A DNA stretch of 64,000 nucleotides from a virus (lineage: Duplodnaviria; Caudoviricetes). The position numbers and the translations under genes were made by a program. Positions 23,043 to 34,265 of this stretch are shown here, one piece after another. Position 1 is the stretch's first letter. Every line of letters starts with the position of its first letter. The notes beneath the pieces were generated by a model, which worked only from the letters and a program-made list of their open reading frames with translations, searched no databases and was not told the origin of the DNA. The stretch lies in the IMG/VR virus record IMGVR_UViG_3300010355_000898, positions 205,548-269,547 of that record; one strand, written 5' to 3'.

Positions 23043-25532
23043 ATGTCATTCTTTAATTTCAATAGTGATGATCTTGAAGTATTTACACTGATAACATATC
23101 CAAGTAGACTTTTTAGCTCAAGCTCAAATGGAGTTATTGGAAGTGTAAATGTTTTCAACAGACGATCACAAATTGAAAAAGATATTGATCCAATATCATC
23201 ATGTGTTAACAGTACACATGATGATGCTGACATATCAAATCAATTGCAATCAATCACTTCAAAATGTGGAGTAAAAGTATCACTAAAACAGTCAATATAT
23301 GATGAGATGACGTCATATATGAATGCTGTGAATTCTCAAAAACAGTCAATCAAAAAACAGAAACAACTTGAAATTTTGAGATCTGTACCGGGAAATGTAT
23401 ATGATACATCTTTTCAAAAAAAGATAATTGCAAAAAATTTGCAATCACATTATAGGGTTGAATATTCTCACAATGATTGGAAATATAACAACTATTGTAG
23501 TCTGAATTTTTATTCAGGATCATCAGTTCCAGAACAGTCTGCACTCCTGTATCCAGATCCAGGAGAGAATCCAAATTCTTCATTGTATGAAGGTTATGTA
23601 ACAGGAACATACAGTCTGCTTGGACCATTCAGCTTTGAATTCTATATCAATCCAAAATATAAACAAGAATCTGAACATTTTAACGCAGGAACAATTTTTC
23701 ATCTTTCATCTTCATACGCTATATCACTTATTTCTGGATCAAAAAGGGACGATTTTGGCAATGCCGAAATGTTCAGATTGCAATTGCAATTGAGCGCTAG
23801 CGCTGATATTAGACCAGATCTTGCTGTTCCTGGAAGTCATCCAAATAATTTCACATTTTTGTCTGATGACAACAGCCTTCAATGGAATAAATGGCATCAC
23901 GTTGTCATCAGATGGGGTACAAGTGATGTTGAATATGGGACCGGTTCTTTTGTTGTTGATGGAGAAGTTAAGGGAACATTTGTTATACCATCACAATCAA
24001 TAGCGCCAAAATTGTTCAAAAACAGTGATAATCCTGCTCTGTTGACAATTGGAAATTATTATGTTGGAACAAATGCTGGCAATAGTTCACAAACAAGATT
24101 TTTTTCATCATATGTATCATACACTGAAGGTCTCAAAGAATTGTCTGCGTTGTCAGATAATCAACCTGAACAGTATGGATTTACAAATCCACTCAATGCT
24201 GAATTGCATGATTTGTCAATAAAGAGATATTACGTAACTGATGATGAAATTATTCAGAATGGTGGTAGAGGACCAGAGATATCTGATGTAATTGATACAG
24301 AAAAGTATGCATTCTATCTTGGGCCACAATTTCATGAATTGTCACCAATTAGAAAAAAGTATGTTAATGATTATGCATCACCCGGTGGATATAAGATCAC
24401 ACCAGTAATGAATATTGACGGTTCAACAAAAACACCTTTTGGAACATTTATGTCAGGTATTGGTGGTAATTACATCAATATTGAAAATCATGTTGTTGAT
24501 GCAACAAATTCAAATTGGCCAAGATGTCACCTGATGTCAAGCTCAATAACTGTTGAAGCATCTGATAATATTGTTGATTGCAATGAAATTCTTTATCAGG
24601 ATGAATTCATTAGGAGAAGAAATACGCTGATACTTCCATGTGATGATGGAAATTTTGTTCCATCATATGTAATTGCACAATTGAATTCAAACAATAACAG
24701 TATGCACACTGATTACGTTGGAAATGTTGACTATTCAATGGTTCAACTTGGAAATGTGTATACATCAAGTTCATTCATAATTTCATCACAATTGTATGCA
24801 GCTCAAGAAGGAACACAAACATTTGCTGATGATCTCATAGGACCAACACCTGAACACCCATTGAGAGCATATGGTCCTGCACTATCTTCATATATGAAGA
24901 GCTTGTACAGAGATGCACACTCTTCTGATGGGTATCAATACTCAAAAGTTTATGCTGAACCAAATGTAATCTATTCCAGAACATTTGATAAGGCTTCAAA
25001 TAATGTTACACTATTCAATATTAGTAACCTCTATTATGGGATGAAGATTAAACCTGGGTCATTTTCAATTAAAGATGTATCCATTACAGGCTCAAATGGT
25101 AGATATGGTATAACGTTGCATGATGATGGGTTTGGTGGGTTGTACAGATCAGATTGTTATGGTAAACAGGCAACCACAAATACAGTTGGAACAGTATTCT
25201 ATGATGAAGGATTGATTGCCATCATAAATCCATATTTGAACCTTTTTGGAAAAGATCAGTTTGAAATATCATTCAAAGGTGTACAAAATGTTCATGTTGC
25301 AAAATATAGTGTGACAGCAAATGCAAATACATTGAACAGCTCAAAAAATCCTTCATACAAATTGTTGTCTGCATCACTCAATGCAAATGATCAGAATTCA
25401 AAATTTGTTGCAATATCAGGTATCAATTTTCATGATGACAATTACAATATTGTTATGAAATCTCAATTGGCACAACCAATTGTTAAGAGAACAACAGATA
25501 CAATAACTTTCAAAGTGAAGTTTGATTTTTGA
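23043..25532 (+). CDS. Putative structural protein with LamG-like domain
   Basis: FSFEFYI, WHHVVIRW, LTIGN; C-terminus paralogous to the 21814 ORF (SKNPSY...LAQPIVK). Confidence 0.55.
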   Translation: MSFFNFNSDDLEVFTLITYPSRLFSSSSNGVIGSVNVFNRRSQIEKDIDPISSCVNSTHDDADISNQLQSITSKCGVKVSLKQSIYDEMTSYMNAVNSQKQSIKKQKQLEILRSVPGNVYDTSFQKKIIAKNLQSHYRVEYSHNDWKYNNYCSLNFYSGSSVPEQSALLYPDPGENPNSSLYEGYVTGTYSLLGPFSFEFYINPKYKQESEHFNAGTIFHLSSSYAISLISGSKRDDFGNAEMFRLQLQLSASADIRPDLAVPGSHPNNFTFLSDDNSLQWNKWHHVVIRWGTSDVEYGTGSFVVDGEVKGTFVIPSQSIAPKLFKNSDNPALLTIGNYYVGTNAGNSSQTRFFSSYVSYTEGLKELSALSDNQPEQYGFTNPLNAELHDLSIKRYYVTDDEIIQNGGRGPEISDVIDTEKYAFYLGPQFHELSPIRKKYVNDYASPGGYKITPVMNIDGSTKTPFGTFMSGIGGNYINIENHVVDATNSNWPRCHLMSSSITVEASDNIVDCNEILYQDEFIRRRNTLILPCDDGNFVPSYVIAQLNSNNNSMHTDYVGNVDYSMVQLGNVYTSSSFIISSQLYAAQEGTQTFADDLIGPTPEHPLRAYGPALSSYMKSLYRDAHSSDGYQYSKVYAEPNVIYSRTFDKASNNVTLFNISNLYYGMKIKPGSFSIKDVSITGSNGRYGITLHDDGFGGLYRSDCYGKQATTNTVGTVFYDEGLIAIINPYLNLFGKDQFEISFKGVQNVHVAKYSVTANANTLNSSKNPSYKLLSASLNANDQNSKFVAISGINFHDDNYNIVMKSQLAQPIVKRTTDTITFKVKFDF

Positions 25533-25924
25533 TGAAAAAGAAGAAAAAGAAATCAGCAAAATTTACAAATGGTATGCACCATTCAACCAAAACAGGTATG
25601 ACATACAACTATAAGAGCAGTTGGGAATTGGCATACATGAAATTTCTCGATAAATCTGATGATGTTAAATCATACCAATATGAACAGGTTATCATAATGT
25701 ATGTATGCAAACTGAAAATGTATAATCTGAGAAAATATCTTCCTGATTTTTTGGTTGAATATTTGGATGGTAGAAAAGAATTGATTGAGATAAAACCTGC
25801 ATCAAAAGTGAAAGACTATCAGGTTGCTGAAAAAGCAAAAATTGCAGAACAGTGGTGCAGAGAACACAATGCAACATTCAAATTTATGACAGAAGTTGAT
25901 CTCAAAAAAATTGGTGTACTATAG
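25532..25924 (+). CDS. TnsA-like endonuclease / T4 gp4-like head completion protein
   Basis: YKSSWE, YLPDFLV, LIEIKP, FKFMTE. Confidence 0.8.
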   Translation: MKKKKKKSAKFTNGMHHSTKTGMTYNYKSSWELAYMKFLDKSDDVKSYQYEQVIIMYVCKLKMYNLRKYLPDFLVEYLDGRKELIEIKPASKVKDYQVAEKAKIAEQWCREHNATFKFMTEVDLKKIGVL

Positions 25925-26562: not shown

Positions 26563-27528
26563 ATGCTTCAGACTACGACGGCAAAAATCAGGTTTATAGA
26601 AAGCATTTTTGGCAAAGGAAATTTGGCTGGCGATGGCATCAATTTTGATGTTAGATGTCCATTTTGTGCGCCAAATGATCACAAAAAAAAGAAACTGGCA
26701 ATCAGACTTGTTGATGATGCAAATCATTGTTGGACTTGCGGGTGGAAATCGAGAACATTAGCACCACTTTTGAAAAAATTGGGTTTAAACCTGCAACTGA
26801 ATGATTATTTGAAAGATTTTCTGAATTCAGATATCTTCATCAGTGAAGAGGTGAAGAATGAAATAAGATTGCCAAAAGATTTCAGATTGATTGTTTTTGG
26901 AAATGATCATGATCCAGATTGCATTGCAATTAAACGATATCTCAATAAACGTGGACTCACAGATGATGATCTGTGGTATCATAAAATAGGCTATTCAAAT
27001 GAGCCAAGGTGGTACAGAAGAGTGATAATACCCTCATATGATGATAGAGGAAATCTGAACTATTTTGTATCAAGAGCAATTGATGCAAACAAAAAACCAA
27101 AATATGATAATCCAAACATTGACAAAAATTTGATCATTTTTGGTGAGCAGAATATAAATTGGTTGAAACCTATCATATTGTGTGAAGGTGTATTTGACGG
27201 TATGAAATGTGGAACAAATTCAATCCCATTGTTGGGAAGTGATTTGAATGAAGATGCATATCTTTTCAGCAAAATATTGGCATATTCACCCAAAATTATA
27301 ATTGCACTTGATGGTGATATGTGGTCAAAGAAAACACCTAAATTGGTAAAAAGTTTGGAAAAATTTTGTATTGATGTCGTTGTCGCAGACACAAGAAGTA
27401 TCATTGATCCAGGATCAGAAACCAAAAGTGTTATGGCAGAGATCATCAATAATGCACAATGTATGACATGGGACAATATTTTTCATGAAAAATTGAATAA
27501 CGCCTCAAGAACAAAATTGTCAATTTGA
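26563..27528 (+). CDS. DnaG-like DNA primase (Zn finger + TOPRIM)
   Basis: CPFC...HCWTC, YLNKRG, RVIIP, KYDNP, CEGVFD, ALDGD. Confidence 0.85.
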   Translation: MLQTTTAKIRFIESIFGKGNLAGDGINFDVRCPFCAPNDHKKKKLAIRLVDDANHCWTCGWKSRTLAPLLKKLGLNLQLNDYLKDFLNSDIFISEEVKNEIRLPKDFRLIVFGNDHDPDCIAIKRYLNKRGLTDDDLWYHKIGYSNEPRWYRRVIIPSYDDRGNLNYFVSRAIDANKKPKYDNPNIDKNLIIFGEQNINWLKPIILCEGVFDGMKCGTNSIPLLGSDLNEDAYLFSKILAYSPKIIIALDGDMWSKKTPKLVKSLEKFCIDVVVADTRSIIDPGSETKSVMAEIINNAQCMTWDNIFHEKLNNASRTKLSI

Positions 27529-27565
27529 ATTGAACAAACAGCAATAAAATGTTGACTATCTTATA

Positions 27566-28213
27566 GTGATAAAGATTGCACACATAAGTGACATTCATAT
27601 CAGAGGTAGAAGTAGACTTGATGAATATCAAGAAATTTTGAGCAAATTCAATTCTGATGTTGAGCGTTTAAATGTTGATCATATATTCATAGGTGGTGAT
27701 ATTTTTCACACAAAAACACAAGGAATAACGCCCGAGTACATTGATTTTCTTGTGTGGTGGTTGAAATCAATGTCATCAATTGCACCAGTCCATATGATAT
27801 TGGGTAACCATGATGGAAATCTTGTTAACTTATCAAGATTGGATGCAATAACGCCAATTGTTGAAGCAATTGGGGATGAAAATATACACTTATATAAGAA
27901 TTCAGGAGTGTATGAATTCCATCCTGGATATACATTCTGTGTCTTTTCAATCTTTGATACAGAAAATTGGCATAAAGTGCTTCCAATTAGTGGAAAAACA
28001 AATATTGCATGTTATCACGGTCCAGTTCATGGTTCAACAACAGAAGTTGGATGGAACATTGAGGGTGAATTGAATGTTGATACATTTAAAGAATTTGATT
28101 TCTGTTTTTTGGGCGACATTCATAAAAAACAGTTTCTTGGTTTTAGAGATGTTGAAATTGAAATTGATGAAAATGATTTGTCAAAATACCCGGGTGCTGA
28201 GGTAATAGAATGA
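27566..28213 (+). CDS. SbcD/Mre11 (gp47-like) nuclease, N-terminal piece
   Basis: SDIH, GDIFH, GNHD, YHG and GDIH motifs; the following YPGS-type motif is in the next ORF. Confidence 0.85.
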   Translation: MIKIAHISDIHIRGRSRLDEYQEILSKFNSDVERLNVDHIFIGGDIFHTKTQGITPEYIDFLVWWLKSMSSIAPVHMILGNHDGNLVNLSRLDAITPIVEAIGDENIHLYKNSGVYEFHPGYTFCVFSIFDTENWHKVLPISGKTNIACYHGPVHGSTTEVGWNIEGELNVDTFKEFDFCFLGDIHKKQFLGFRDVEIEIDENDLSKYPGAEVIE

Positions 28214-30795
28214 GCAATAAAAAGATCAGAATAAGGGTAAAAAAGCCCTGGATAGGATATCCAGGTACTCCAATTCAACAAAATTATGCCGAAGATTTGG
28301 AACATGGATATTTTGTATGGGACATTGATAATGCAAAAAAATTTGATGTCAAATATCATCAATTGCCAAACACAAAACCATTTGTTACGTTGAAATGGAC
28401 TGATGATGTTGAAAAAACATTTGAACTTGCAAAAAAATATCCTCAAGGATCAAGATTTCGAATTGTTAGTGATGTGCACATCATTCAGCGAGATATACAT
28501 GAATTGACAATGAAATTACGACAAGATTTGTGTGCTCTTGAGGTGACATACAAATCTGATGCAGATTTGAGTTCAAAAAATGTCAAATTCACAAATTCAA
28601 ATATTCAACAGGATGATTTGCGCAATATTGATGTTCAATTGAAATTGCTGAAAGAATATCATAAGAATTCATCAATAGATACAGAAGAATTTGATAAAAT
28701 TTCAAATAAGATTAGAGACTATTTGAAAATTGTTGCAACTGGCGATGACACAATAAGAAACACTCAGTGGTCACTTAAAAGTTTGAAATTTGACAATATG
28801 TTTTCATATTGTGAAGACAATTACATAAATTTTGAGAATTTGAATGGTGTAGTTGGAATTTTTGGTCAAAATAGAACTGGAAAATCATCAATTGTTGGTA
28901 CGTTAATGTATGCTCTGTACAATGCAACAGATCGTGGTCCAATCAAAAATTTGCATGTAATCAACGTTAGAAAGGATAAATGTTCAGTTAGGGCAGTTAT
29001 TCAAATCAATGGTGTTGATTATGTCGTTGAAAGAATTACTGAAAAGAATGAAACAAAAAAGGGAGCAATATTTGCACCCACAACATTGAATCTCTATTCA
29101 ATTGATGATAGTGGTGATGCTCACATTATGAATGGTGAGCAGAGAAATGATACTGAAAAAATGATCAGAAAACTGATTGGAACACAGGATGATTTTCAAA
29201 TCACATCATTGGCAGCACAGGATGATCTGAAACAGTTCATCAATCATGGATCAACAAGACGTAGACAAATCTTGTCAAGATTTCTTGATCTTGATATTTT
29301 TGACAAAATGCATGAACTTGCAAAGAATGATTTGAATTTCATCAAGGCGCAATATAAGAATGTATCAAAAAAGGACTGGAAACAGACTGAAGATATATTG
29401 CTAACCAATATATCAAATTGTGAACAGGAACTTCAAACAATTGATGATAAGATCAGTTTTTGCAGAAGTGAATTGTCAAAATATGAAATTGAACTATCAG
29501 CACACCACAATTCAAATCCTGTAACACAGTATGACATTGATCAGTGTAATGAACAATTGAATTCAACAAACAGAAATTTGACAAATGAACTCAAATGTGA
29601 AAGTGATTATCAACACAAAATTGATGATTTGAAAGGTAAAATTCAAAAAATTGATATTGCGTTAAAGAGTGTTGATGTCAATGATCTGAAGAATAGAAAA
29701 GAACAGATCAGAAAGCTCGAATTGTTAATCAATGATGTGAAACATGATTGTGATGTTTCAGCAACAGAAATCAAAAGACATAAAAAATCACTTCAATTAT
29801 TGAATGACATCCCATGTGGAGAAAAATATCCAACATGCAAATTCATTAAAGATGCAATTGAATTGAAACCAGAATTGCTGAAAGAAGAACAGAAATCAAC
29901 ACAACTTACTGAAAAATTGCAAAATTATGTTGACAATATGAAAAAGTTGACATATGAAAATGTTGATGAAAAACTTGACAAATTTCAAAAACTTCAACAG
30001 ATGAAATCAAAATTTGAGATTGAGGTTGAAAAATTCAATCATTCATTACACGTTTCAAAAGAAAAAATTGTCAGATTGAATGAAAAGATTGAATTGTTAA
30101 CTGAACAATTGCAAAAATACATTGAAGCAATCAAGAATGATGATAATGTTACAATTGTCAACATAAAGACAGAAATTGATAGAACAAAAAAACTCATAAA
30201 GAAGTATGATAATGATAAGATAATTTCAGCAACTGAAATTGGAAGATCAAAATCTCAACTTGAAAAAGTTTTGAATGAAAAGGCTGAATATGATGAAGCT
30301 TTGAGTAAACTGAAAATTTATGAGTTGATAACATCTGCATTTTCAAAAAAGGGAATTCCACAGCTGATTATGCAATCACAATTGCCAATGTTGAATGAAG
30401 AGGTTACAAAATTATTGCATGGAATTGTTGATTTTACAATAGAACTTGGCGCAGATGATGAAACTGACAGTATGGAAATATACATCAATTATGGTGATAG
30501 TAAACGTCCAATTGAGTTGTGCTCAGGAATGGAAAAAACAATTGCATCAATTGCTTTGAGAGTTGCAATGATCAACATATCATCATTACCCAAATCTGAC
30601 GTATTCATAATTGATGAGGGTTTTGGTGTTTTTGATGAGAGTGGTATTGATGCAGTCAATAGACTGTTGGGCGTTCTGAAAACATATTTCAAAACTGTTC
30701 TTATCATTACGCATATTGATGGCATAAAGGATGCAACAGATCAAATTGTTGAAATATCAAAACGCGAAATTGATTCGTATGTATATTTCGAGTGA
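28210..30795 (+). CDS. SbcD C-terminal piece fused to SbcC/Rad50 (gp46-like) ATPase
   Basis: YPGTPIQQNYAE then GQNRTGKSS Walker A, coiled coil, CSGME signature, IIDEGFG Walker B, ITH. Confidence 0.88.
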   Translation: MSNKKIRIRVKKPWIGYPGTPIQQNYAEDLEHGYFVWDIDNAKKFDVKYHQLPNTKPFVTLKWTDDVEKTFELAKKYPQGSRFRIVSDVHIIQRDIHELTMKLRQDLCALEVTYKSDADLSSKNVKFTNSNIQQDDLRNIDVQLKLLKEYHKNSSIDTEEFDKISNKIRDYLKIVATGDDTIRNTQWSLKSLKFDNMFSYCEDNYINFENLNGVVGIFGQNRTGKSSIVGTLMYALYNATDRGPIKNLHVINVRKDKCSVRAVIQINGVDYVVERITEKNETKKGAIFAPTTLNLYSIDDSGDAHIMNGEQRNDTEKMIRKLIGTQDDFQITSLAAQDDLKQFINHGSTRRRQILSRFLDLDIFDKMHELAKNDLNFIKAQYKNVSKKDWKQTEDILLTNISNCEQELQTIDDKISFCRSELSKYEIELSAHHNSNPVTQYDIDQCNEQLNSTNRNLTNELKCESDYQHKIDDLKGKIQKIDIALKSVDVNDLKNRKEQIRKLELLINDVKHDCDVSATEIKRHKKSLQLLNDIPCGEKYPTCKFIKDAIELKPELLKEEQKSTQLTEKLQNYVDNMKKLTYENVDEKLDKFQKLQQMKSKFEIEVEKFNHSLHVSKEKIVRLNEKIELLTEQLQKYIEAIKNDDNVTIVNIKTEIDRTKKLIKKYDNDKIISATEIGRSKSQLEKVLNEKAEYDEALSKLKIYELITSAFSKKGIPQLIMQSQLPMLNEEVTKLLHGIVDFTIELGADDETDSMEIYINYGDSKRPIELCSGMEKTIASIALRVAMINISSLPKSDVFIIDEGFGVFDESGIDAVNRLLGVLKTYFKTVLIITHIDGIKDATDQIVEISKREIDSYVYFE

Positions 30796-31081: not shown

Positions 31082-31465
31082 ATGGCAGAACAAATAAATT
31101 ACAATGCTTTGGGTCAAGCAATTGATACGACCTGGGGTAGAAGTTCAACTCCACTCACATCTGGTTATTCAGTCAAATTTTCACTCTTTGGTGAAACTGG
31201 CATGATTGCTTCATACACAGCAATTGTCAATTTTGGCACAGAAAAACAGATGATTGATATGAAATTGCGTTATCAGGATGAGGCAAACAGAGTTGTCAGT
31301 GAATATGTTAAAGCCATAAAAGAGAGATATAAGTCGTTGACTGGAAAAGCAATAAAAATTGTTGAAAACAATTCCAGTGATTCAATTGAAGTGATTGGCT
31401 TTGGAGTACACAATCCTCGTAGAACAGCGTACTATAGAAAAAAGTTAGTCTTTGAATTGGGCTGA
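31082..31465 (+). CDS. Hypothetical protein upstream of terminase
   Basis: 127-aa ORF following the late motif. Confidence 0.6.
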   Translation: MAEQINYNALGQAIDTTWGRSSTPLTSGYSVKFSLFGETGMIASYTAIVNFGTEKQMIDMKLRYQDEANRVVSEYVKAIKERYKSLTGKAIKIVENNSSDSIEVIGFGVHNPRRTAYYRKKLVFELG

Positions 31466-31466
31466 A

Positions 31467-34265
31467 ATGGCATTAACAGGAAATCCAACAAAAAGTGATC
31501 AGGTAAAAGAGATAATCAGGTGCGGTAAAGACCCAGTCTATTTCATAAACAGTTATGTAAAAATTCAGCACCCATTGAAAGGAACCATACCTTTCAACAC
31601 ATATCCATTTCAGGATGAATGTTTGAAATCATATGAAGAAAATCGTTTCAACATAATCTTGAAATCAAGACAGCTTGGTTTATCAACTGTCAGTGCTGCA
31701 TATGCAGTGTGGCTGGCAATTTTTCATAAAGACAAGAATGTTCTCATCATTGCAACAAAACTTCCAACTGCACAAAACTTTGTGAAAAAATGTTTGGTTG
31801 CTGTTCAAAACTTACCAAAGTGGTTACTTTTGCCAAAATATCAACCATCAAAACAACAGATAGAATTCAGTAATGGGTCAGTGATTAAGGCTATTCCAAC
31901 ATCTGAGGATGCTGGTAGATCAGAAGCTTTGTCATTGTTGATTGTGGATGAATGCGCATTCATACGAGACTTTGATACGATTTGGACAGGTATTTTTCCA
32001 ACAATAAGCTGTTTAACAGGTGATACAAAAGTATTGACTGATTTGGGATGGTCAAATATTGATGAATTGTGCAAAGGAGATATTGGAACATTTTGTGATG
32101 CAAAAGATTTGAATGTTTATGCAAAGAATGGATTTGAATCGGTTTCACATACATACATTTCGCCAAAATCATCATTGAAAATTATCACAACGTCAAGTGG
32201 TAAAAAATTGAAAACTACATTTGAACATCCATTGTGGACCTTGAGAGATGGAACAATTGGAATGATCAAAGCAAATCAATTGAAAATTGGTGATCATTTG
32301 AAATTGAAATTTGGTACACAACAATTTGGCAAAATTGTTGATGAAAATGCATACATTAGTGGTGTGATCTTATCTAAGTCATTCATTAATGATAATGAAA
32401 CATGTGTACAGAATGATGATGTACAAATAGGAGAACGTTTACTTGCAGTAGGGTTTCAATACAATGATGGTATATTCAGATCAGAACGTCAAGAACACAG
32501 ATTGAATTCAATTCCAAATTCAGTTTGGAAAGGTAATAGGCATACGCAATCTCAGTTTTTGAGAGGGTTTTTTGATGCAAATTCACACATAGGCAACACA
32601 ATAATGACATATTCTCATAACAGAGAATTGATGAATGAAATTCAACTGTTGTTGCAAAATTTTGGAATTGTGTCAAAAGTTTATGAATATTCTGATTTGA
32701 AATCAAGGTTATCAACCCCCCCAGTTGAAAACCAAACCAATTGGGTTCTTGAATTGAACAAATATGGCTCTGAATTGTTCAAGAATGACATTGGAATAAC
32801 TGTTGAAAAGAAAATGGGGAAACTATTAAAGTTGTCAGAAAAATATTCTGGCGATGAAAGAATGCAATTTATATTGTCAAAAAAGTTGCAAAGTGTTGTT
32901 GAAACAATGTTGAGAAATGTGATTGACTATCAGAGAACAAGGATATCAAATCACAAAAAATATTCATACATTTCTGATCTGATAGGAAAATTGAGATATC
33001 AGGTTCTTGCAAACAGAATTCTTGAGGATGATTTTGATCTGTCTGAGGATGAACAAACATTCTTTCATGAAATTGGAGAAGAGAGTGTTCTGTGGGATGA
33101 AATTGTTTCAATTGAATGTGGTGATGATCAGATAACATATGATTTCACAGTTCCTGGAACACATACGTTTTATCAGAATGGTATATTGGGAAGCAATACA
33201 GGTGGTCGAGCAATTCTGCTGTCGACGCCAAATGGCGTTGGTGGTCAATATTACAAATTGTGGGTCGATGCAGAAGCAGGTGTCAACAATTTTAATGCAA
33301 TAAGATTGCCATGGACAGTTCATCCAGAACATGATCAGGATTGGTTTGTTAATGAGACCAGAGGATTCACGAAAAAGAAAATTTCACAAGAATATGTGTG
33401 CGACTTCGTAGCAAGTGGTGACACGTTCTTAACGTCAGAAACACTCGAATTGGTTAGACAAGACATAGAAGTACCTTACAAAAAGTCAGAAATTGACAGA
33501 AATGTTTGGATATGGAAAGACCCAGTACCAGGAAAGAAATATATCATTTCAGCAGATGTATCAAGAGGTGATGCAAGAGATTTCAGCGCATTTCATGTTA
33601 TTGACGAAGAAAAACTTGAAGTTGTTGCTGAATATATGGGAAAGATACCACCTGAAAAATTGGGTGATTTACTGAATGAAATTGGAAAATTGTATTGCAA
33701 AGCATTGATTGCAGTTGAACAGAATACGTTTGGATATTTCACTGCAACAAAATTGAAAACAATTGGTTATCCACATCTCTATTATCACAATGCAAGGGGA
33801 GATTACAGATCATATGTGCCATCAGAGGATGAGACACCCGGTTTTCCAACAAATCAGAAAACTAGAACACAAATAACAACAAAACTCGAAGAATTGTTGA
33901 GAAACAGACAACTTCATGTTAAGTCTCAACGATTATATGATCAATTGCAATCTTTCATCTGGAATGGAAATAAACCCATGGCTTCAAAGGATGCATATGA
34001 CGATCTTGTTCTGTCACTTGCAATTGGGACGTGGATGCTCGATGCTGGTGAAGGAAAGAATGCAAATGTTGACATAATGTATGCACTTCTTGGATCAACT
34101 GGTAAAATTGGATTGAAACAGAATGACATTCCAGGTTTCAGGAAAATTCATGATATGTCAATTCATTCAACTTACAAAAATATTGGTGTTGCAAAACCAC
34201 GACAAATGGATGATGTCACAAAAGAAAGACCTGATCTGCTGATTGATACAAGTTGGTTATTATGA
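31467..34265 (+). CDS. terL: Terminase large subunit (T4 gp17-like) with intein
   Basis: KSRQLGLST Walker A, LIVDE Walker B, LLSTPNG, SADVSRG, DDLV nuclease residues. Confidence 0.95.
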   Translation: MALTGNPTKSDQVKEIIRCGKDPVYFINSYVKIQHPLKGTIPFNTYPFQDECLKSYEENRFNIILKSRQLGLSTVSAAYAVWLAIFHKDKNVLIIATKLPTAQNFVKKCLVAVQNLPKWLLLPKYQPSKQQIEFSNGSVIKAIPTSEDAGRSEALSLLIVDECAFIRDFDTIWTGIFPTISCLTGDTKVLTDLGWSNIDELCKGDIGTFCDAKDLNVYAKNGFESVSHTYISPKSSLKIITTSSGKKLKTTFEHPLWTLRDGTIGMIKANQLKIGDHLKLKFGTQQFGKIVDENAYISGVILSKSFINDNETCVQNDDVQIGERLLAVGFQYNDGIFRSERQEHRLNSIPNSVWKGNRHTQSQFLRGFFDANSHIGNTIMTYSHNRELMNEIQLLLQNFGIVSKVYEYSDLKSRLSTPPVENQTNWVLELNKYGSELFKNDIGITVEKKMGKLLKLSEKYSGDERMQFILSKKLQSVVETMLRNVIDYQRTRISNHKKYSYISDLIGKLRYQVLANRILEDDFDLSEDEQTFFHEIGEESVLWDEIVSIECGDDQITYDFTVPGTHTFYQNGILGSNTGGRAILLSTPNGVGGQYYKLWVDAEAGVNNFNAIRLPWTVHPEHDQDWFVNETRGFTKKKISQEYVCDFVASGDTFLTSETLELVRQDIEVPYKKSEIDRNVWIWKDPVPGKKYIISADVSRGDARDFSAFHVIDEEKLEVVAEYMGKIPPEKLGDLLNEIGKLYCKALIAVEQNTFGYFTATKLKTIGYPHLYYHNARGDYRSYVPSEDETPGFPTNQKTRTQITTKLEELLRNRQLHVKSQRLYDQLQSFIWNGNKPMASKDAYDDLVLSLAIGTWMLDAGEGKNANVDIMYALLGSTGKIGLKQNDIPGFRKIHDMSIHSTYKNIGVAKPRQMDDVTKERPDLLIDTSWLL
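32010..33197 (+). mobile_element. Intein with degenerate LAGLIDADG domain (396 aa)
   Basis: PTIS|CLTGDT...TTFEHP...FLRGFFDAN...TYDFTV...NGILGSN|TGG. Confidence 0.9.

Follow-up and report, generated by a model that had tools for sequence, protein, structure and literature searches.

A phage SbcD-SbcC gene split inside its nuclease domain and the oppositely charged terminal peptides that probably help its halves to associate

How can a nuclease be put together when its gene is cut in the middle of the catalytic domain? The question is raised by a 64,000-nucleotide stretch of jumbo-phage DNA (hereafter the window; positions 205,548 to 269,547, that is, the last 64 kb, of the 269.5-kb IMG/VR record IMGVR_UViG_3300010355_000898), in which the record's single copy of the SbcD-SbcC (Mre11-Rad50) gene is found in two pieces on the + strand. 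The first open reading frame (ORF1, 27566..28213, 215 amino acids (aa), GTG start, TGA stop at 28211-28213) is the N-terminal fragment of SbcD/Mre11 and ends in an acidic tail (28148..28210, residues 195-215); the second (ORF2, 28210..30795, 861 aa, ATG at 28210) begins with a basic head (28210..28245, residues 1-12). We consider it probable that this is a 'fractured' SbcD-SbcC gene, the halves of which are translated by coupling and co-fold, and that the oppositely charged peptides, contributed by a cassette, help them to associate.

The division of labour between the two products is uneven. ORF1 matches Metallophos in Pfam (5e-14) and phrog_100 (SbcD-like) in PHROGs, as a calcineurin-like phosphoesterase of the SbcD type, and in an alignment with 119 relatives it carries all five metal-ligand motifs of Mre11/SbcD (I-V: D9/H11, D45, N81-H82, H151 and D184/H186), each of these eight residues being invariant. 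Motif V, GDIH (28112..28123, residues 183-186), is the last host motif ahead of the insert. The first ~190 residues of ORF2 are the remainder of SbcD (28246..28779, with two core beta strands at ~14-17 and ~34-37, the capping domain and a helical linker), to which a complete SbcC/Rad50 ATPase (28780..30795) is covalently joined, with N and C ABC-type head lobes and a long coiled coil between them (Pfam AAA_23 at residues 191-409 and SMC_N C-terminally; phrog_77, SbcC-like, 1e-49). This layout agrees with the original prediction, which was made from the letters of the window and described phosphoesterase motifs up to GDIH and an acidic tail on the first frame, and a basic head, the rest of SbcD and the whole of SbcC on the second. 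Its suggestion that the two chains reassemble a split active site stands only in part: the break does lie inside the nuclease fold, but the metal-ligand motifs are all on ORF1, and ORF2 supplies core strands and the cap.

The contiguous state is the normal one in this group. Most of 80 viral-contig loci are SbcD-SbcC fusions, and the best 150 representatives after 50% clustering are mostly fusions of 1030-1090 aa with loops of 14-26 residues. Microcystis phage Mel-JY01 encodes one fusion of 1066 aa and the uncultured phage LR756501 one of 1202 aa, each with 15-16 residues between GDIH and the YPG/YPS strand; in fused relatives generally the spacing from GDIH to YPG[ST] is 14-19 residues in the same chain, as had been expected. 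Most relatives thus have a short hairpin at the break site, all in one fused chain, and the window gene is split relative to these contiguous homologues. In bacteria, T4 and T5, SbcD and SbcC are two separate subunits; the present data document that, for a large group of large phages from the environment, Mre11-Rad50 fusions in one chain are the rule. Across this phage group the single polypeptide measures ~1045-1200 aa (for instance L001 3953-7150 and L003 5001-8609), and the Joint Genome Institute labels for the fused proteins give both subunit names.

The two frames of the window meet in an ATGA stop/start overlap (28210..28213), ORF2 lying in frame -1 relative to ORF1. A Shine-Dalgarno-like GAGGT (28199..28203) stands 6 nt 5' of the ATG, inside the tail codons for Ala-Glu-Val, and comparable purine-rich words precede the start of the C part in L091, L093, L006 and L089. 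The frame of ORF2 has a TGA at 28198-28200, so that only a shift within ~10 nt could fuse the frames; a single base gained or lost within 28201-28212 would indeed do so, which is what an assembly or sequencing error, or a decaying pseudogene, would have in its favour. An independent ENA assembly, L085, has the identical junction and carries 4 single-nucleotide polymorphisms (SNPs) in 191 nt (three synonymous, one an Arg-to-Lys change in the head). Moreover, the split is common to hundreds of clusters: 369 clusters at 90% identity are N fragments of 214-233 aa ending in the tail, and ~60 of the best 120 relatives of the C part start at the head. Both fragments are also conserved to the same degree as fused relatives. 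Sequencing error was rejected on the first two of these grounds, and with the third the probability left to error or decay is negligible.

It could still be asked whether one fused chain is made from the two frames, through programmed frameshifting, stop read-through, ribosomal bypass or trans-splicing by a split intein. Bypass has a precedent in T4 gene 60, which an endonuclease cassette has split, and in L009 the two halves are parted by nothing other than an in-frame TAG and the ATG that immediately follows it (1275-1280), so that read-through would give a fused chain. The frame relation, however, varies from locus to locus, from the 4-nt ATGA/GTGA overlap in frame -1 (the window, L085, L089, L091, L092 and L093) to TAATG in L006, the in-frame arrangement of L009 and gaps with 200-940 nt of cargo, and every C part keeps its own start codon; a conserved frameshift or bypass is thereby excluded, and no slippery heptamer was found at 28201-28213. 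Splicing fares no better, since Pfam gave no Hint or intein match in ORF1 or ORF2, the peptides (21 and 12 residues) are far too short, and the splicing residues are missing, tails beginning with Val, Ser or Ile and the residue after the head being Pro. A group I or II intron was likewise rejected, as the insert has only ~95 nt and Rfam detected no intron in window positions 27000-29000 or in L002, L004, L015 and L086. Production of a single chain is accordingly very improbable. The split is confirmed as real, not a sequencing error, a frameshift, an intron or an intein, and the original prediction was right to read the overlap, the GAGGT and the stop in the second frame as a coupled split lacking splicing residues. 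An RNA hairpin masking the ORF2 start was considered separately and rejected: the 121-nt junction folds weakly (z = -2.1), with no stem over the Shine-Dalgarno sequence or the AUG. Three split C parts (P0124, P0134 and P0148) have 962-963 aa, ~100 residues beyond the usual 857-876 aa.

The peptides at the break are conserved and of opposite charge. The tail follows the pattern E-[IL]-x-I-D-E-x-D-L-x-K-Y-P-G-A-E-[VI], and it is this pattern, instead of the alternating Glu-Ile at first taken as the hallmark of the tail, that is kept among relatives. Its net charge averages -6.1 (range -10 to -3, n=120 clusters), that of the head +4.9 (+3 to +7, n=60 clusters). Split versions carry both peptides in these 120 tail and 60 head clusters, as was anticipated, and tail and head are absent from short-loop fused relatives. 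The companion claim, that fused versions lack the segment, is true of nearly all of them; five fused cluster representatives (P0212, P0219, P0306, P0308 and P0332) keep the whole insert as a continuous loop of 49-50 residues, an outcome that the original prediction had named as one that would count against it. Yet the separation of acid and base is gone in all five, the N sides having a net charge of +2 to -2 and the C sides of -1 to +2. Strong charge separation therefore accompanies the non-covalent state. Among the comparative data this is the strongest reason to think of an electrostatic role, and it favours a role that is specific to the split state.

Structure models give this role a possible shape. 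AlphaFold2 was run on the read-through form of L009 (with Gln for the TAG) and on P0212, a natural fusion, and in both models the insert consists of a strand (189-201), a helix, a strand of 5-7 residues and a further strand (221-233), with a predicted local distance difference test (pLDDT) score of 88-95. A 13-residue strand runs from the core into the tail, a tight turn is placed at the break point and another 13-residue strand leads from the head back to the core. The L009 model has the nuclease and capping-domain fold and matches SbcD/Mre11 structures (7dog_A, template modelling score 0.53/0.67, E = 7e-13; also 4lty, 6s6v and 3qg5). The window's own chains were modelled as a complex: for ORF1 with residues 1-195 of ORF2, ESMFold2 gave an interface score (ipSAE) of 0.89, whereas the best of three controls scored 0.00, although for halves of a known fold this score may partly reflect memory of solved Mre11 structures. 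This ipSAE mark was reached by 58 of 80 solved complexes and by 2 of 110 mismatched pairs. At least 84% of the contacts were common to the runs, with a partner pLDDT of ~70, and the predicted interface comprises ORF1 residues 1-11 and 178-214 and ORF2 residues 3-22 and 33-56. Extrapolating the antiparallel register from the contact of 190/191 with 15 would set Glu197, Glu199 and Asp201 of the tail opposite Arg9, Arg7 and Lys5 of the head; the models and this register together suggest that tail and head pair directly. The beta-zipper first proposed for the two peptides is thus partly upheld. The models do set tail and head side by side as beta strands, the head being predicted as a strand continuous with the next core strand; but the most confident contacts are elsewhere, and the tail is more than a strand, being predicted as a strand, a short helix and a second strand.

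Put together, these results are consistent with the following course of events. A phage gene whose normal product is one Mre11-Rad50 (SbcD-SbcC) chain would here be held in pieces by a discrete cassette. The cassette would lie in a beta hairpin at the protein surface, after motif V and before the YPG strand, and be made up of ~21 codons and a stop, an optional cargo, and a start with ~11 codons. The cargo, which in some relatives is a free-standing homing-type endonuclease gene, would have been lost from the window, leaving the ATGA junction. Coupled termination and initiation would yield two products, which may co-fold by beta-sheet complementation of the phosphoesterase core; the acidic tail and the basic head are predicted to prolong the core strands on either side, so that a small arm (beta-alpha-beta plus beta) is formed, and their opposite charges most likely steer and stabilise the association.

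Several points weigh against a part for the peptides in this scheme. The most confident predicted contacts are those between core strands (ORF1 4-6 with ORF2 34-37; ORF1 179-182 and 190-191 with ORF2 14-17). The conservation of Ala-Glu-Val in the tail coincides with the ribosome-binding site of ORF2, the GAGGT being embedded in these codons, and translation by itself can select for starts that are Lys-rich and A-rich. In P0190 a C part of 852 aa starts at the core strand, apparently without a head, behind an N partner of 225-229 aa and a 23-nt gap, even if from its sequence it may be a variant in which the break point has moved to after the head. In the split NrdA of Aeromonas phage Aeh1, moreover, the tails are dispensable for heterodimer formation, though needed for higher assembly and activity (PMC3045599). 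Such facts would suit an explanation in which core beta-sheet complementation suffices and the peptides are passengers, kept for the ribosome-binding site, the stop and start signals, the A-rich start and the destruction of the homing site, that is, for immunity to endonuclease-bearing relatives. What this leaves unaccounted for is that residues conserved above 90% lie far from the junction signals (I200, L205, Y208 and P209 of the tail, I8 of the head), that the sign of the charge is invariant in all 120 tail and 60 head clusters and lost in five of five continuous forms, and that the insert is modelled as an ordered unit at high confidence. We consider passenger peptides unlikely; the models and the comparative charge pattern favour peptides that may matter for assembly.

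The split is also evolutionarily labile. On trees inferred from an alignment of the C part without its head columns, the split/fused state changes 10-12 times on 184 and 205 rows (FastTree) and 16 times on a 60-row IQ-TREE tree, at least 12 of these being forced by starred branches; as the C part alone was used, recombination could inflate the count, which is a caution against our reading of it. A case resembling gain is P0231/L086 (split, with an endonuclease gene), sister to the fused P0293/L088 with support 100 inside a short-loop fused clade, and a case resembling re-fusion is P0243 (fused, loop 35), nested in an all-split clade with support 95-99. Each of four further fused forms, P0248 (loop 31), P0289 (28), P0212 (50) and P0284 (24), has a split form as its sister (support 91-99), and the split L002 is sister to the fused Mel-JY01 (support 100). 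The root is not established, so that the directions of these changes are to be read conditionally; the split appears to have been repeatedly gained and re-fused.

A different history would make the arm an ancestral continuous hairpin of this SbcD subfamily, cut in place, with endonuclease genes as later entrants to the gap. At the break site fused relatives do have hairpins 19, 24, 27-35 and 49-50 residues long, the cargo genes found in the gap differ, and the basal lineages of a 131-row clade are split. Nonetheless, the intermediate and full-length continuous forms that could be placed on the trees are sisters of split forms or lie within split clades, which suggests re-fusion; L086 has tail, endonuclease gene and head within a short-loop clade; and host genes that share only 26-35% identity have similar tails together with a homologous endonuclease. 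We give this history little credence, preferring an insertion into the short hairpin.

Insertion is illustrated by L086 (split) and L088 (fused), whose N parts are ~80% identical: three residues between a conserved Arg and a conserved Pro are replaced by the tail, a 314-aa ORF and the head. ORFs of this kind, with a zinc finger and a TnsA-like_N domain and 305-314 aa in length, lie between tail and head in L086/L087 and in L002, the relative of Mel-JY01; the nucleases of L086 and L002 are 42% identical (2e-45), against 26% (C part) and 35% (N part) for the host genes. In L004/L005 the cargo is a different ORF of 289 aa, matching homing/HNH endonuclease families in PHROG; a sequence search of the PDB with the L004 ORF gave no match, and a link to the Vsr-like/EDxHD family of Dassa et al. 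was not established. L015, L016 and L078 have an ORF of 72 aa (L015 4645-4863) that overlaps at both ends and has no Pfam or PHROG match, so that the gap can carry non-nuclease cargo as well. A second type of tail is common to L002, P0399 and P0416, which belong to different host clades.

From these observations it may be asked whether the peptides travel with the endonuclease. The flanks that encode the clasp would then be built into an endonuclease cassette and move with it, as a 'split-and-clasp' element that breaks the gene it targets and mends the break non-covalently. Such an element would have spread to SbcD-SbcC genes in large phages that are very divergent from one another, and would be kept after loss of the endonuclease because the scar destroys the homing site. 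We take this to be a serious possibility, though not one on which we would bet. Counting against it, the gap of the window holds no homing endonuclease, the two genes overlapping by 4 nt, and the gaps of relatives hold two unrelated endonuclease types and a non-nuclease ORF; with such diverse cargo the gap could be a landing pad made after the split and not the scar of a causal element. No evidence of a portable clasp elsewhere came from a scan of viral contigs with the TnsA-like endonuclease, which gave only two distant relatives; L095, the one examined, is a free-standing gene after a capsid gene. The word YPG recurs in the tail and in the core strand and was considered as a possible trace of target-site duplication, but the DNA similarity is weak and the second tail type lacks YPG. 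If the co-mobile cassette exists, it would add to introns and inteins a third way, free of splicing, in which a mobile endonuclease is tolerated, and the pair of ~33 residues would be a natural portable heterodimerising tag.

Other features of the region may be mentioned. At 25529-25924 the window has a gene for a 131-aa TnsA-like_N nuclease (Pfam 1.5e-15), which shares 32% identity with the nuclease domain encoded by the L002 cargo, and the order nuclease, ~190-aa ORF, primase and SbcD is conserved in L085, L089 and the contig of P0212; given this synteny, it may be a resident or domesticated endonuclease. The large terminase subunit (31452-34265) is interrupted by an intein, which bears a LAGLIDADG domain (Pfam Intein_splicing 1e-14, LAGLIDADG_3 1e-8). 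Terminases of 532-548 aa without an intein are found in L086, L089 and L091-L093, so that this part of the genome is rich in mobile insertions. At the apex of the ORF2 coiled coil (~545-560) the window clade has two Cys six residues apart, in the context Pro-Cys-Gly...Pro-Thr-Cys-Lys-Phe; at the same position Mel-JY01 and L002 have a CxxC hook-like motif, and the two-Cys motif may be a variant of the Rad50 zinc hook.

Natural variants number in the hundreds in this family, and every state is represented among them: fused with a short loop, split with or without an endonuclease gene, and re-fused with the full or a trimmed insert. Because the charges follow the covalent state from variant to variant, the proposed mechanism is directly testable, and the small natural peptide pair could serve as a docking tag for split proteins.

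How does this locus compare with known fractured genes? The split NrdA of Aeromonas phage Aeh1, reportedly described by Friedrich in 2007, is likewise an essential DNA-metabolism enzyme cut inside a functional domain by insertion of a free-standing endonuclease. To our knowledge, it is the only case in which splicing-free rescue of an endonuclease-broken enzyme has been demonstrated, and we know of no structure of its tails. Its genes lie in the order nrdA-a, mobE, nrdA-b, and its interaction tails come from the mobile element (PMC3045599). These tails, which are oppositely charged, are essential for activity, and it was proposed that the fragmentation of genes can be neutralised generally in this way (Crona et al. 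2011, PMC3045599). In both systems the fragments bear unique terminal peptides of opposite charge that contiguous homologues lack, and neither RNA nor protein splicing is invoked in the proposed recovery of function. The differences are that the host here is SbcD-SbcC and not a ribonucleotide reductase, that the polarity is reversed (acidic N tail, basic C head), that the window has no endonuclease gene between the halves, and that the split occurs in hundreds of lineages instead of one phage; the SbcD peptides, known from sequence and models, are predicted to form a defined beta arm.

Closer to our host gene, Dassa et al. (2009, PMC2677866) described one SbcD-like locus, from Lake Gatun, in which N and C ORFs with 25 and 9 extra residues flank a gene for a Vsr-like endonuclease, with no split intein. 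It shares with the loci considered here the order of N part, free-standing endonuclease and C part with overlapping coding ends, and very probably belongs to the same insert family as L004; their other 26 loci have split inteins that ligate the halves, unlike the intein-free locus of the window. Loss of the endonuclease gene is step III of their model (PMC2677866), whereas a role for the extra residues, the endonuclease-free ATGA form, the charge pattern, the re-fusions and the breadth of the family were not part of that work. The T4 topoisomerase genes 39/60, with mobA and a 50-nt bypass cassette, and the split gene 43 of Aeromonas phages 25 and 44RR (Edgell review, PMC2988022) are also phage replication or repair genes split by endonuclease-associated insertions, whose pieces reassemble into active enzyme. 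T4 gene 60 relies on ribosomal bypassing, however, and no charged clasp peptides have been described for either case. Naturally split inteins such as cyanobacterial DnaE have an acidic N part and a basic C part, with long antiparallel strands that steer their association (PMC2677866). The SbcD peptides share this polarity, but with 33 residues in total, no Hint fold and no catalytic Cys, Ser or Asn their association would stay non-covalent. The natural docking module envisaged in the original prediction is thus well supported in silico, though not new as a concept (PMC3045599, PMC2677866). The phenomenon is of a known kind, and what the SbcD-SbcC family adds to it is the scale, the endonuclease-free ATGA form, the apparently repeated gains and re-fusions, the loss of charge separation on re-fusion and a concrete structural model.

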